Shown here piece after piece: positions 20,501 through 24,045 of a stretch of 64,000 bases of DNA. The stretch lies in assembly GCA_000004695.1 (NCBI GenBank), contig CM000152.2, forward strand, positions 2,080,001-2,144,000. Direction: 5' to 3'. A program made the translations under genes and the position numbers. The notes below the pieces were generated by a model. The model did not search any database. It had not been told where the DNA came from and saw only the letters and a list, made by a program, of their open reading frames with translations. The DNA comes from Dictyostelium discoideum. Taxonomy: Eukaryota. Every line of letters starts with the position of its first letter. The first letter of the stretch is position 1.

Positions 20501-21013
20501 ACAAAAATCTCTTTAAATGATGATCAATCCAGTGATCAATGGGGTAAAACTGGTGCTGTAAATATGATGTTGGTTAATAATTTCGTTTGGATAACTGGTG
20601 GTTCAAAATTGACTCAAATTGATTCACAATCTTATCAACTCTTGGAAGTACATGGAAATCATTATTCAAAACCAATCACCTCAATGGCATTGGTTGAAAA
20701 AAATGTTTGGATCTCTTGTGAAGATGAATCACTTTCAGTTTGGGATGGTGATACTGGTTCCTTTATTAGAAAAGTTGGTTCTCCAATTGGTTCACCAACT
20801 AAGCCAACCGTTTACACTAAACTTTTATATTTCAGTGGTTATGTTTGGGCTTGTACTCAAGGTTCAATTCATATTTATTGTATTCATTCATTAACTTGTA
20901 AAAAGAAAGTTGAATCAAAAAATCATCCAAATAGTATTGTAGATTTAATTAAAGTTTTCCAACAAACTGTTTGGTCATGTTGTGGTACAAATAATGTTTG
21001 TATTTGGTCTTAA
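14570..21013 (+). CDS. Roco-family protein kinase, 2147 aa: N-terminal LRRs, Roc GTPase, COR, Ser/Thr (TKL-like) kinase, and a C-terminal WD40-like propeller with an embedded PH domain
   Basis: It is one uninterrupted ORF. The LRRs read LDLSGNCISVLPPELANLTELVRLDLSFN. The Roc P-loop is KLMIVGQENVGKTSLVKCL, followed by WDCAGQE. The kinase shows GRGASGKIYRA…VAVK, HRDLKSPNVLL and VGDFGLS. The PH-like segment is GRKSWRLRWFVLSRFDKTLKYYSK…WLTAINRV, with WD-like repeats on both sides. It is not identical to the Roco4 kinase domain as I recall it, so the paralog is unassigned. Confidence 0.85.
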   Translation: MNSIHKQHYTINSNHYNESININSLLLNDLNDEKRTTSTNNKSNNNSNNNNNETLEDIIEFNNNNCNGDMKYLDLSKRMIYSLELMMIPEIENRFQGDFKSISILNLNDNLLGEIPESLKQLTQLISLSIRGNHILEIPLWFPEEFKLLRKLDVSHNAISSVPNTFNKFSILEDLNLSNNYISYIHPSLFPEGIMRLNLSNNLFREVELPPWFESLLTLDISGNKLKHLGNLPFHLVRVSIDDNHLESIDHKVILRNKDLALKFNQSFSDIVLERIYQCWYTGDPVLDLSGLGMCVVPPILGMLVHLTHLDLSGNCISVLPPELANLTELVRLDLSFNILTTLPLYIVSYKRLEHLDLQGTLDTLVSPPRRIAETGKLIDIQRYFHDLFQGEPSYRVKLMIVGQENVGKTSLVKCLKMKKKFSKNSDHLGTNVSTDGIDIDEIKFNLDIELPSNPSSNSLISNSLSNSSISSNNINSNNNINVHSNGGGINSNGVNSNSQININSSSGNIHSNGGGVGNVNSSGGIHSNNSSGGGGGSNSFLNNTNSNGTNNNSSNLNINTNSNNVNSSGGGNNYHPPVGTNTSMSNIQVIGSSGSNLGSGSNLSIGGSNGNNNNNSGGSGTMVNQRVTMSIWDCAGQELYYTSHQMFLTDSALYVVVWNLCKPEVNSRVEFWLHSIRSKAENAPILLIGTHLDDYLATHSESELDEILENIYSKYFRKFRLKGISILSCSTGVGFDNFLDLLKKTVVELPSLKQSLPELYLKLEKLIIKKRSTLVPPVLTWQSFSQMVLSNLDFHDEIHVKVATKALVPLGSISFFDEPGLDQYVFLDPQWLTGVFSSIITTKHKFIKDGVLKKSDLYQIWKPPHFIEDEGLHSLLINLLERFELMFPLDSDLVSLSSSNGNNGNSYVNNNNNNNNNSNNNNNGSNKSSPFKTTPSSPSTLRLVDSKSKGSHSSNPILSGNNSSSKNSTSTKRSISGSPLRSRSNSDLDLIGGGGGSPINGSSIDYSSKSNTLTPGLFNELNQKFIIPSQLPEIRPSFGLLWPSLDHSRVEFNRWIQLSFAPAGLFSRLLIRLLISKEFDMKPILYWRNGVVVESQSGKSFLSTSTALIEMVPSYANCSSTIKISVRGDRRTGRGLSAKLLRLIVEIADTLCTSWYHLETNQVIPCPHCINKPNCTLFSLSDCEAVASSGVWYLLCGDRKINFETFVPDVAMSDFWGSGSKKFNYDQIKMHKEKRILSIKPASFGNNQIQFEVRVPPSPPPPPVQQIINNGADDNITTTTLAVNNIKVLESGGSQPPSPRSGKDVTHELPIINRLEIIQPTSDESSLIQVEFDHNNQTLVISGTYKYGDLLEIEFESPKLIGRGASGKIYRANLNDTMVAVKQLEVVGEDAPRIFSEFRREIHVMSDLKHSNVVNLLGFTLSPFTMVMEYIDCGDLHKFLHSPIGDQLNGNWALILKLALDIAKGMEFLHSVTPPLLHRDLKSPNVLLSMKDGVYTAKVGDFGLSSRMFIQALKHKLRNFPVGNITWVAPEILREEEYTVKSDVYAFGLILHELLTRKHPYREFNYSMVSLQEDAIKNGLRPTISPSYTQTVTGHEYCGLIQDCWDSDIDRRPTFNKIVKRIKQIIGRDVNNILMVNGVSVVSGIQSPNSLADSQPFHYHQQQQPSLNSTNQLQQQQYSSVLTSPRSNLSDSSNSSQNIANKSLNNISATSLGDLGGNDENLGGQLQYSMRVPQPEAKVNQLVWEVNSRRVWGGCESGEIIVWNAENGNQIFREQKLHPGPIRSLALVNQEDIWSAGGIGPQQSTIRIWNAWRFNLDDQSGTKSDFITKKGRGGSTFGRKSWRLRWFVLSRFDKTLKYYSKQTDKEPSCSLILEGAWLEEISPPGYKVSLHLIHPEKRTMEMEFKSESEKSSWLTAINRVINQNIPLYEIALGKQMTSGSENDYITNLLSVGPNVWVSLKETPSILVYNVKSKELVTKISLNDDQSSDQWGKTGAVNMMLVNNFVWITGGSKLTQIDSQSYQLLEVHGNHYSKPITSMALVEKNVWISCEDESLSVWDGDTGSFIRKVGSPIGSPTKPTVYTKLLYFSGYVWACTQGSIHIYCIHSLTCKKKVESKNHPNSIVDLIKVFQQTVWSCCGTNNVCIWS

Positions 21014-23500
21014 ACAATAAATTTGAATTTATTTAAAAAAATAATCCTTATGATTTAAATTTTTTTTTTTTTTAAACTCTTTTGTTTTTGGTGAATTCAA
21101 TATGTTGTTAATGTTGCAATTAAATAAAATCAACCATCTCTTGAAATTGTAAAACCTTGAATAGTTGATAATTCTTTATCGGTTTTCTTTTAGAATCTTT
21201 GATGTAAGAAATTGGTATCCTTCTTGATAATTTTGTTATTATTGTTATTCTAATTATTGAAATTGTGATTATTATTGGTGTTAATTAATATTACAAAGTG
21301 AAATGATGATAAAGATATTTGTGTGTGTAAGATGGTGGTGAAATTTCATTGTGAAGTTGATGTTAATTAATTCTTTTAAACTTAAAACATGGTGATGCTA
21401 CTTTGTACCGGAATAGAGGATGGTTTTGAAATAATAAAACAATACCTATATTACCAAATTAAGTGAGGTTAGCTAATTTAGTGAGGTTAGAACCACCAAA
21501 TAAACCAGTTCCAGGGATTAAAATTGAAACTAAAAAACAACCAATTGTTTGTTGAGATGGTTGAGCCGAACCATTAAAATCCATCTTCAGTAGTTGTAGA
21601 TTCAAGTTGGTTAAATGATGGGAATAATTTATTTTTTTTATTTATTTTTTCAAAAAATTTATTTTTAAAATAAATTATTATTATTATTATTATTTGAATA
21701 ATTATTGCTGATTAAGTTGTCATTGTTTAAAATTTTCAAGGAAAGAGCTGTTTGATGATAATATATTGTTGGTTGGTTTGAGTCTGTATTGGTTTCATTA
21801 CAATAGTTGATGGTAGTGAAAATTATTTAATATTGTGACATTGCTGCAATGATGTGATATAAAATAGAAGGTGTTGATGAATTTAATATTCATTATTGCA
21901 ACAGCATTATTTGATTTTTTTAAACCAAGGAAAGATTTGGGCCCAAAAGATTGAAATAAAAGATTCCTTCCCCAATGGTACCTCTTCGAAAAAAAACAAT
22001 TGTTAATGTACCTCTTTTAAATTAATATAGTTGATAATTTAAACAATAATGAAAAAAAAAATATTTTATTAAATCTTTTAATTTTTATTTTTTAGTTTTT
22101 GATTTCTAATTTTTATTTATAAATGATGTCAACTTCTTTTCAAAATGCCATAGTGCATAGATAAATATTTCCTTTCACTAAGTTTAGAAATAATTTTTAT
22201 GTGATGATCAACCTTTCTTAATGATATAGTGCATAGATAAATCTTTCCTTTCTATATCATTTGATTGGTATTAATTCATATATTATATTATCTAGATTAT
22301 AATTGACTTTAAACCATTTTTATTTTACTTTATAAAAAAAATAATATTAAAATTAGATTTAAATTGCTTGTTATTTTTTTATTTGTTTTTTTTTTTTTTT
22401 TTTTTAATCTCTTTACCTTTTTATTTTTATATTTTAAATTATCAATCAACTTTTATCTAAATTTATAATTGTTACAGTTAGATTTTTTTTTCTATTTGTG
22501 TTTTTTTTTTTTACATTTGTACAATAGATTATTTTTTTTTTTTTTTTAAAAAAAAGTGTCTTTTAATACTGGACCTTTTTCAATTTTTTAAATTATTTGA
22601 AATCAAAAAAAGTTATTTTTACTATTTAAGTAAAATCTAATAGCCAAAAAGTAAATTTCCAAATCTGGGAATATTCAAAAGGTGTATTATTTAAATATAT
22701 TCTTCGTTTATCTTAACAAAAGCCCTAAAACTTAATTTTTATTTTTTAAATTTTAAAAAAATAAAAAAAAACATATATTTTAAGATTTTCTTTTTTTTTT
22801 TAATAATTTGTTTGAGAAATAAAATAATAAAAAATCACAAAGAATTTTTAATTTATTTTATCATATTTTTTATTATAAAAAAATATTTTTACTATTATCA
22901 TTATTGAAAGATATCCAGTTTTATATATTTTATTATTTAAAATTAAATTGATAAAATAGGTATAAAATCTAATGTTTTCTTACAATTAAAGAAGAAATGA
23001 CTCAATGTCCAATCTTCATGATTTGGATAGTTTACTGGTAGACATCTTAAATGATATCTAAACATCGTGTATTTTGTTTTGGGATCTTTTAAGTGTTGGG
23101 TTTTGATTGTGTAGTTTTTTATGAACTGAGCAGATTCTTCATCCAAGTGAACTTGTGACTTTTTTACTATTTCGGCGTAAGAGCTCATTTCGATGTGTTA
23201 TTTATTATTTTGAGCTTTGAGATGATAGATCGAAAGATCTTGATGATCTGATGATGAATACAGAAAGATTGAAAGAAGATGACCGAGATTGGAGGTGGAA
23301 AGGTATAGATTAATTTTAGTCAATAACCTCTAATCTTTTTAGGTTTTTTTCAAAGGTCTTAATTTGGTGTTTTGGGTGGTGTGATTTAGGATCTGTAAAT
23401 CGTAAGTGGTGCTGTTATCTTTATAGTTGAACATGATTTCTTCAATGTTGATTTTCCGAAGTTCGTATTTTTCCCAAAATACCAAAACCCCAAAATTTTG

Positions 23501-23571
23501 TGCGTATGCTGGGAATCGAACCCAGTTCGCATCCGTGGCAGGGATGCATCATACCACTAGACCACATACGC
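23501..23571 (-). tRNA. tRNA-Gly (anticodon GCC)
   Basis: The minus-strand sequence is GCGTATGTGGTCTAGTGGTATGATGCATCCCTGCCACGGATGCGAACTGGGTTCGATTCCCAGCATACGCA. It has a 7-bp acceptor stem (GCGTATG/CATACGC), an anticodon stem CATCC/GGATG with loop CTGCCAC (U33, anticodon GCC, A37), a T-arm CTGGG-TTCGATT-CCCAG and discriminator A. A T-run follows the 3' end (plus 23490..23500). It closely resembles eukaryotic tRNA-Gly-GCC. Confidence 0.9.
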
Positions 23572-24045
23572 TTTTTTTTATGATATTTAAAAAAAATATC
23601 TTAAAAAATTTTGATTTAAGAAGAAGCAACTAAAAATTGCGTTATTCCATCCAAAAAAAAAATTTTGATTTTTCTCTATGTGCACAAGCGTTATTCCATT
23701 CAAAAAAAAAAAATTTTGATTTTTCTAAATTAACCCAAAAATGATTTTTATTTTTTTTAAAAATTTGATTTTTTAAATTTTAAAAAATAGAAATAAGACA
23801 ATGTCGAAAATGATTTGGAAACTTGGGTAACAGAATAACATTCTCAAAATACCAAATGATTTTATTTTAATAAAGTTATTATCTTAATTTTTTTTTTTTT
23901 TTTTTTTTTTTTTAACCCACCAAAAAATAAAAATAAAAATAAAGAATAAAAAATAATAATAAACAAAAAAATTATTACAAGCAAACTGTTTCAAAAAACA
24001 AAAATAAAAAGAAAAGTCAATAGAAATAGTGTATGATTTTTTGTT

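Follow-up and report, generated by a model that had tools for sequence, protein, structure and literature searches.

A tRNA-Gly(GCC) gene lies between roco6 and ctsD on chromosome 3 of Dictyostelium discoideum AX4, in a spacer whose base composition departs from that of the A+T-rich spacers nearby, and this locus raises the question of where such DNA comes from. Within the window (the whole 64-kb stretch of DNA that was analysed), the first-pass annotation had attributed the complete 2.7-kb block running from roco6 to the far side of the tRNA gene to the decay of a tRNA-targeted retroelement. Homology, position and orientation uphold this attribution for ~660 bp on the downstream side of the tRNA gene and ~110 bp on its upstream side, and it is not supported for the whole 2.7 kb. 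Taken together, the sequence comparisons make it highly probable that the tRNA-Gly(GCC) gene is a landing mark for tRNA gene-targeted retrotransposons of the non-LTR (non-long terminal repeat) class, of which dead fragments of TRE3 type (downstream) and TRE5 type (upstream) would remain. TREs are found at 61% of the tRNA genes of the genome (PMC5006619), and the feature described here is of a known kind, ordinary for this genome, leaving the picture of tRNA gene-targeted retrotransposition unchanged. It would account for the odd base composition next to the tRNA gene, and the view over seven haplotypes suggests repeated and precise re-targeting of one site, with fast decay by internal deletion.

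The tRNA gene (23500/23501-23571, minus strand), which serves as the integration landmark, was recovered by ARAGORN and by Rfam (RF00005, 63.6 bits); as it lies on the minus strand, its 5' side is correctly placed at the higher coordinates. Syntenic loci of six further haplotypes were obtained through the cluster members of Roco6 and cathepsin D, namely two labelled D. discoideum (L002, L003), two of D. cf. discoideum (L006, L007) and two strains of D. citrinum (L008, L009), within a comparison set amounting to ~250 kb of fetched loci. The order roco6, tRNA-Gly, ctsD is kept in all haplotypes, with the tRNA-ctsD segment inverted in L003, and the tRNA-Gly sequence is 100% kept in 6 of the 6 others. 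L006 is the closest relative (98% identity over the 3' end of roco6). Within the window, colinearity with other haplotypes is seen at 21014-21743 (to a varying extent), at 22894-22941, and over the tRNA gene and the sequence immediately next to it.

The G+C content reaches 23% over 21014-21743 (peaks 30-33%), 30% over 21744-22000 and 30% over 22906-23449, against 12-16% in the spacer otherwise, and 22001-22783, in the middle, is spacer of the ordinary kind (16%). The atypical block is thus made of two or three G+C-richer islands rather than being uniform. The other statements of the first-pass annotation on composition are confirmed: the other spacers are A+T-rich (neighbouring spacer at 12-14% G+C) and no long open reading frame (ORF) stands between roco6 and the tRNA gene.

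TRE3-type and TRE5-type sequence beside the tRNA gene

TRE3 elements insert 40-150 bp downstream of a tRNA gene and share its orientation (PMC5911963). The putative TRE3-type remnant of the window (22791-23449, minus strand, ~660 bp) starts at 23447-23449, that is 51-53 bp downstream of the tRNA 3' end at 23501, and its ORF1 start, ORF2 piece, 3' terminus and tail all lie on the minus strand, as does the tRNA gene. It is bounded on the right by host flank common with other strains and on the left by an A11 run and a 7-nt repeat. Its parts follow one another as a 5' untranslated region (5'UTR), an ORF1 start, a deletion, a piece of the ORF2 zinc-finger region, a second deletion, a 3' terminus and a decayed A-rich tail, and they match two further loci, L010 and L011, and the proteins P0132 and P0133 that these respectively carry.

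The 5'UTR-like part (23189-23449, minus strand) aligns by MAFFT with L010 4890-5149, just upstream of the ORF1 ATG, with identities of 72% over 23299-23189, 61% over 23399-23300 and 63% over 23447-23400; by blastn, 23083-23291 matches L010 5255-5047 (76%, E 3e-27), with weaker homology continuing to ~23447. The first 35 codons of ORF1 follow (23084-23188, minus strand), recognized by BLASTP against P0132 and by 78% DNA identity to L010, which drops to 47% past the junction at 23083. There, a C-terminal zinc-finger region of ORF2 (22962-23091, minus strand) is fused in frame at an LKD motif and bears a 30-bp deletion; besides its BLASTP match to P0133, its DNA corresponds to L011 at 23031-23091 (11232-11292, 87%) and 22962-22993 (11360-11391, 87.5%). 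The 3'-terminal piece (22906-22961, minus strand), ending in ATATATAAAACTGG and then ATATCTTTC, aligns to L011, at the 3' end of its element (TTTAAACTGG + A26). ATATATAAAACTGG occupies 22915-22928 and precedes the A-rich tail. L002 and L006 show this terminus and tail pattern too, in syntenic position and joined there to different internal parts, and 22894-22941 matches L002 17278-17325 by blastn (85%, E 1e-9).

The decayed tail itself (22791-22905, minus strand, 8% G+C) ends in A11 (T11 on the plus strand, 22791-22801). At the tail site, L002 (16930-17270) and L006 (5467-5612) hold an (AAT)n/(ATT)n microsatellite, ~400 bp long in L002, and the poly(A) tail of an old TRE3 insertion appears, from this comparison, to have evolved into that microsatellite. 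A candidate target-site duplication, GATTTTC, frames the remnant, with its distal copy at 22784-22790 (GAAAATC on the minus strand, directly after A11) and its proximal copy at 23450-23456, abutting the remnant 5' end. The window has 238 A-runs of 10 nt or longer, and no other one directly precedes a 7-mer present in the 23 nt that flank the remnant's 5' end.

The protein evidence comes from the 81-aa ORF (22943-23188, minus strand) taken from the ORF list. An exhaustive HMMER search of its 84-residue open frame against 1.84 billion representative proteins returned only four matches. P0131 is the AX4 40-aa hypothetical protein DDB_G0279469 (XP_641644.1, UniProt Q54WS3), 100% identical to ORF residues 42-81. 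P0132 (392 aa) is ORF1-like and its residues 1-35 match ORF residues 1-35 (25/35, 71%; BLASTP E 3e-15). P0133 (503 aa) carries an RVT_1 domain and its residues 326-379 match ORF residues 33-76 (28/54, 52%; BLASTP E 2e-15) with a 10-residue gap, corresponding to the 30-bp deletion, that takes out the CxxC of the Cys/His motif. P0134, an ORF2 fragment, gives a second ORF2 match. The matches to P0132 and P0133 thus show the 81-aa ORF to be a fusion, in frame, between the start of an ORF1 and the zinc-finger region at the C-terminus of an ORF2. The two meet at the LKD motif common to both (~23083-23091), and we regard this in-frame join as accidental.

Elements related to the remnant occur at the same tRNA gene in other strains and at other tRNA genes. 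In D. citrinum L008 (6950-8990), a 2-kb 5'-truncated element, directly downstream of the same tRNA-Gly gene and co-oriented with it, carries a 664-codon ORF with RVT_1 (E 2e-19), ends in A17 and is flanked by a ~10-bp duplication, TTCCGA(A/T)TTT; its ORF matches the zinc-finger piece of the window (37% over 67 aa, E 2.6e-7) and, like P0133, includes neither an RNase H nor an integrase domain. L009 lacks this element and instead holds an unrelated remnant resembling a reverse transcriptase (RT), with 38% protein identity. Searches by tblastn with the L008 ORF revealed remnants downstream of the tRNA gene in L006, L007, L009 and the window, and DNA comparison added further remnants in L002 and L003. 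Since remnants lie downstream of the tRNA gene in all seven haplotypes, this gene is a recurrent target. The TRE3-like downstream remnants of the seven haplotypes are mostly unlike each other, and the upstream TRE5-type content varies among the haplotypes examined. At three other loci, RT-carrying relatives of the remnant stand on the downstream side of a tRNA gene and share its orientation. The L010 element is on the same strand as a tRNA-Thr(TGT) gene with an intron, ~190 bp downstream of it. That of L011 ends in ...AAACTGG + A26 and lies downstream of a tRNA-Pro(TGG) gene of the same orientation, which is equipped with a perfect external B box.

On the other side of the tRNA gene, TRE5 elements insert 44-54 bp upstream, in opposite orientation (PMC5911963). 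Two candidate TRE5-type fragments were delineated on the plus strand, so that their oligo(A) ends run opposite to the minus-strand tRNA gene. Fragment 1 (23618-23662), consisting of the last 35 nt of an element and A10, begins at 23618 for a tRNA 5' end at 23571, with 46 nt between them. Fragment 2 (23676-23713) comprises 26 nt, made of CTATGTGCACAA and the terminal 14 nt GCGTTATTCCATTC, followed by A12, and its start would have been 51 nt upstream of the tRNA gene before the arrival of fragment 1. Both are framed by repeats: TTTTGATTT at 23609-23617, of which further copies start at 23663 and 23714, serves as the proximal target-site duplication for fragment 1; TTTTGATTTTTCT at 23663-23675 provides, with its first 9 nt, the distal duplication of fragment 1 and, with all 13 nt, the proximal duplication of fragment 2, whose distal duplication is the TTTTGATTTTTCT at 23714-23726. 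In the 64-kb window, the exact 13-mer TTTTGATTTTTCT occurs only at 23663 and 23714, and TTTTGATTT has three copies. From the first base after TTTTGATTT, fragment 1 aligns with the poly(A)-ended 3' termini (A10-A13) of ~0.9-kb elements situated, in opposite orientation, ~50-60 bp upstream of tRNA-Gly in L006 (two tandem copies) and of tRNA-Pro in L011. Window positions 23618-23663 match L011 and two places in L006, with 29/35 identical nucleotides between fragment 1 and the L006 copy, and a diverged copy is present in L002. These ~0.9-kb relatives in L006 and L011 have no long ORF.

Compared with the known elements of Dictyostelium, the downstream remnant resembles TRE3 (TRE3-A..D) by its distance and transcriptional orientation, by the two-ORF non-LTR architecture that its relatives suggest (an ORF1 without known domains; an ORF2 with RT and a C-terminal Cys/His motif), by its A-rich tail and short flanking repeat, and by the repeated targeting of the same tRNA gene in related strains. 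It differs from TRE3 by its length of only ~660 bp, the lack of endonuclease and RT sequence and the fusion of ORF1 to the tail of ORF2, and its identity to the nearest retrieved relatives, which are not named subfamilies, is only 61-87%. Pfam scans of the six frames found no endonuclease or RT sequence left in the window, and the endonuclease was also unseen in the relatives, whose copies are truncated. The upstream fragments resemble TRE5 (TRE5-A..C, formerly DRE) in lying 46-50 bp upstream, in opposite orientation and in tandem, with oligo(A) ends and target-site duplications of 9 and 13 bp; they differ in that only the last 14-35 nt survive, matched to the L006 and L011 elements rather than to the published C-module.

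DGLT-A and Skipper-2 (DGLT-P), the tRNA-associated LTR retrotransposons of Dictyostelium, were also considered. DGLT-A, named among the candidates by the first-pass annotation, is excluded: its insertion zone, 13-33 bp upstream of the tRNA gene, is host flank, and the 46 bp next to the tRNA 5' end (23572-23617) are contiguous with L002 and L003. Likewise, the zone 8-23 bp downstream, relevant to Skipper-2, is host flank, 23448-23500 being conserved in L002, L003 and L006. For LTR elements in general, no LTR-like repeats were seen, and six frames gave no rve/integrase, RNase H or chromodomain signal; clusters of DIRS, Skipper and DGLT-A (L004, L005), fetched with seeds rebuilt from a supplement read by optical character recognition, had no match to the region. 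A new element family, also envisaged at first, is not needed.

The downstream side of the tRNA gene also holds a conserved box of 23-25 bp, TTGATTTTCCGAAGTTCGTATTT (23448-23472), unchanged in L003 and L006 (100% identity) and also conserved in L002. This box forms the zone targeted by TRE3, includes the proximal GATTTTC, and is where the elements of AX4 and D. citrinum L008 are both inserted, in the same ~10-bp zone. It is not a canonical external B box, failing the published motif GTTCRANNC (PMC5391098) on both strands, and may be a non-canonical TFIIIC site or a terminator-associated one.

The proposed scenario would involve integration by target-primed reverse transcription, with targeting presumably achieved by the RNA polymerase III transcription complex assembled on the tRNA gene. 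Guidance by this complex has been reported for TRE5-A, and for TRE3 it has been proposed. The copy on the downstream side would once have been long, probably full-length, and would have shrunk by at least three internal deletions.

Several points weigh against this assignment. It was drawn from position, orientation, architecture and homology to the elements of relatives, rather than from TRE3-A..D and TRE5-A..C references, and the homology was established on the fetched loci rather than on AX4 genome-wide copy number. The start of the L010 element, at ~190 bp from its tRNA gene, lies beyond the quoted range of 40-150 bp. The 7-bp downstream duplication is short, with a rough chance probability of ~0.02-0.03. 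Finally, fragment 1 is present in L002 and the supposedly older fragment 2 is absent from it.

One duplicated unit or two upstream insertions

This last point bears on how the upstream pair arose. The two tandem 45-bp units already noticed on the 5' side of the tRNA gene are real; they lie at 23639 and 23688, with a spacing of 49 bp, and AAAAAATTTTGATTT occurs three times. A local tandem duplication (slippage or unequal exchange) in which one old TRE5 end was copied with its flank would agree with the adjacency of units 49 bp apart and with the single unit found at this place in L002 and L003, and it would dispense with the secondary deletion (between A-runs) that the absence of fragment 2 from L002 otherwise requires, so that this origin keeps some probability. 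We nevertheless consider it unlikely in view of the fine structure of the units. The 12 nt that precede the common terminal 14 nt are wholly unlike (CTATGTGCACAA against AACTAAAAATT), one tail is A10 and the other A12, and the 9-bp and 13-bp repeats are nested as expected from two insertions ~46-50 bp from the tRNA gene. Moreover, the 10-mer TATGTGCACA, contained in window 23676-23687, recurs inside the L011 element at ~9197-9206 (minus strand), in sense and ~125 nt into this TRE5-like element, and nowhere else in the fetched loci; fragment 2 could be a copy with an internal deletion of its own. Tandems of TREs have been described at repeatedly targeted tRNA genes, with older copies pushed away from the tRNA (PMC5391098).

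We therefore favour two successive insertions forming a tandem, in which an older insertion would have generated the 13-bp duplication and a younger one, proximal to the tRNA gene, the 9-bp duplication. The notion that the TRE5 site is unoccupied and that the units are a plain local duplication was rejected, L006 and L011 showing that the unit is the 3' terminus of an element. Separately, two tandem TRE5-like elements (~0.9 kb or 5'-truncated) were observed in L006 (7860-9300), ~60 bp upstream of the same tRNA-Gly gene, where they shift the AX4-type fragment outward.

The islands next to roco6

The proposed retroelement origin finds no comparable support in the 1.7 kb between roco6 and the downstream remnant (21014-22783). 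Its first part (21014-21743), a conserved syntenic non-coding island downstream of roco6, is colinear in four related haplotypes with 78-88% identity, extending to 21396 in L002 (87%), 21457 in L003, 21743 in L006 (78-86%) and 21176 in L007; the lengths of the indels that separate AX4 from L006 are not divisible by 3, and no Pfam, transposon-library or protein match was found there. It is treated as host non-coding DNA, comprising the roco6 3' region and further sequence. The repeat noted earlier at ~21461 and ~21478 is real (AGTGAGGTTAG, at 21462-21472 and 21479-21489). Since L006 has one copy, this pair corresponds to a tandem duplication of ~18 bp in the AX4 lineage, which we interpret as an AX4-specific slippage duplication.

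The second part (21744-22783), outside the candidate target-site duplication, is an AX4-only block with 39-nt direct repeats (22138-22176 and 22214-22252, 87% identical), which correspond to the pair first placed at ~22150 and ~22228. It has no counterpart in L002, L003 and L006-L009, and no match to the fetched transposons or to proteins.

The islands of 21014-22783 could alternatively be older retroelement debris past recognition, for example copies pushed outward by later insertions. Their G+C content of 23-30% without an ORF and the absence of 21744-22783 from other haplotypes would be compatible with such an origin, as would the known displacement of older copies from tRNA genes in TRE tandems (PMC5391098). 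Against it, six-frame Pfam scans and tblastx and tblastn comparisons with the fetched TRE3-like, TRE5-like, DIRS, Skipper and DGLT-A sequences gave no similarity; 21014-21743, moreover, is located outside the candidate target-site duplication and has syntenic counterparts in four haplotypes. We accordingly find this origin rather improbable. The claim of debris finds no support for this 1.7 kb, the proximal part being syntenic and devoid of transposon similarity and the distal part matching nothing retrieved.

Two further candidates were rejected for this DNA. A host gene spliced across the islands was suggested by a gene model in L003, which proved to be a poly-N artefact of a microsatellite, and the indels between AX4 and L006 speak against it. 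A non-coding RNA (ncRNA) of class I or driven by a DUSE element was considered as well. Class I ncRNAs carry the motif CCTTACAGCAA, and the DUSE element reads [AT]CCCA[CT]AA. Neither motif is present in 21014-23760, and Rfam, at gathering and E-value thresholds, found only the tRNA. The sole exact CCTTACAGCAA of the window, at 30410-30420 (minus strand), is most likely a chance match, as it falls inside the 735-aa glutamine synthetase III ORF (29355-31562).

Other searches covered the region more broadly. Pfam scans of the six frames of 21014-23500 and of individual ORFs detected no RT, endonuclease, integrase or gag domain. Word-indexed protein searches, whether queried with the 81-aa ORF or with the open six-frame segments joined end to end, gave nothing; these are false negatives of little weight, because the identical annotated 40-aa protein and relatives at 52-71% were missed as well. 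A metagenome scan for a 22-mer of one island (island B) returned 0 matches and is uninformative, the tRNA control also giving 0 in a collection without D. discoideum DNA. A literature search for terminal sequences of the elements found none.

History of the downstream unit and neighbouring genes

The 81-aa ORF reported on the minus strand with codons rare in Dictyostelium is present as announced, and includes TAC, CAC, GCC, CCC, ACG, AGC and CAG. Its codon score of -0.32 per codon lies between that of the host genes of the window (+0.50 +/- 0.21) and that of off-frame sequence (-1.18), which fits a foreign or decaying coding sequence, and an ORF of at least this length arose in 30 of 2000 dinucleotide shuffles of the island. 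As L002 and L006 share the 3' end and differ internally, a single old and longer insertion that decayed separately in each lineage would explain the downstream unit. An alternative is that this unit arose by recombinational collapse of tandem copies rather than from one decayed insertion.

Alternatively, the 660-bp unit could be a non-autonomous mini-TRE3, with the ORF1/ORF2 fusion already present at insertion and mobilised in trans. If so, it would be a SINE-like (short interspersed nuclear element) parasite of TRE3, akin to TRE5-A.2, and more copies with the same junction would be expected elsewhere in D. discoideum genomes. The idea draws on the retention of both ends (a 5'UTR reaching up to a few bases from the junction, and a 3' terminus followed by the A-rich tail), on the direct repeat flanking both sides of the short unit, and on an in-frame fusion of 81 codons, longer than chance (p ~0.015). 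It also has a precedent in the internally deleted, non-autonomous TRE5-A.2 (structure AB-ORF1-BC), which is efficiently mobilised in trans (PMC3159450) and which the unit resembles in being internally deleted with both termini kept. TRE5-A.2, in contrast, has a whole ORF1 and is demonstrably mobile, whereas the unit has 35 ORF1 codons and several deletions, and nothing points to other copies. It carries no fewer than three distinct deletions (from ORF1 to ORF2, the 30 bp with the CxxC, and from the zinc finger to the 3' terminus), and stop codons interrupt the upstream continuation of the frame. The shared 3' terminus and tail of L002 and L006, with other internal parts, argue for one old insertion, L007 has the zinc-finger DNA but not the junction, and the exhaustive protein search revealed no second junction copy. 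A mini-TRE3 is thus very improbable, and the decay of one longer TRE3-type insertion is preferred.

It is still less credible that the 81-aa ORF, or DDB_G0279469 (22943-23065, minus strand; the last 40 codons of the relic ORF), is a functional lineage-specific gene for a small protein domesticated from a transposon: its 81 open codons, rare among the shuffles, a codon score above its own alternative frames and off-frame host sequence, its annotation in AX4 and the promoter-bearing 5'UTR upstream are outweighed by a codon score ~4 standard deviations under host genes, the deletion of the zinc-finger CxxC, the absence of the ORF from 6 of 6 other haplotypes, the lack of any Pfam domain in the ORF, and the newer AX4-like assembly L001 (GCA_054883475.1), 99.7% identical to the window, in which no gene is called between roco6 and ctsD. 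DDB_G0279469 is probably not a real host gene, and its annotation is worth flagging as the tail of a transposon-derived fusion ORF.

Concerning the neighbouring genes, the 2147-aa ORF that ends at 21013 is identical to AX4 Roco6 (DDB_G0279417), and the gene that follows the tRNA gene, ctsD, is identical to AX4 cathepsin D. In L003 (GCA_054859385.1), 16530-23300 corresponds to window 21076-25940, with the stretch from the conserved island through tRNA-Gly to ctsD inverted relative to AX4, and a 111-bp copy of the ctsD 3' end adjoins roco6. At L010, the tRNA-Thr(TGT) gene (4285-4350, minus strand) has a 17-nt intron and was missed by the default mode of ARAGORN and by the Rfam gathering threshold; ~300 bp away, another tRNA-like sequence, whose 5' half is related, stands in opposite orientation (4614-4704, plus strand). 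Lastly, ~550-600 bp upstream of ctsD, the window positions 23913-23926 (AACCCACCAAAAA) and 23973-23995 (ATTACAAGCAAACTGTTTCAAAA) are conserved in L002 and L003 amid unalignable A+T-rich spacer, and may be regulatory elements of ctsD.

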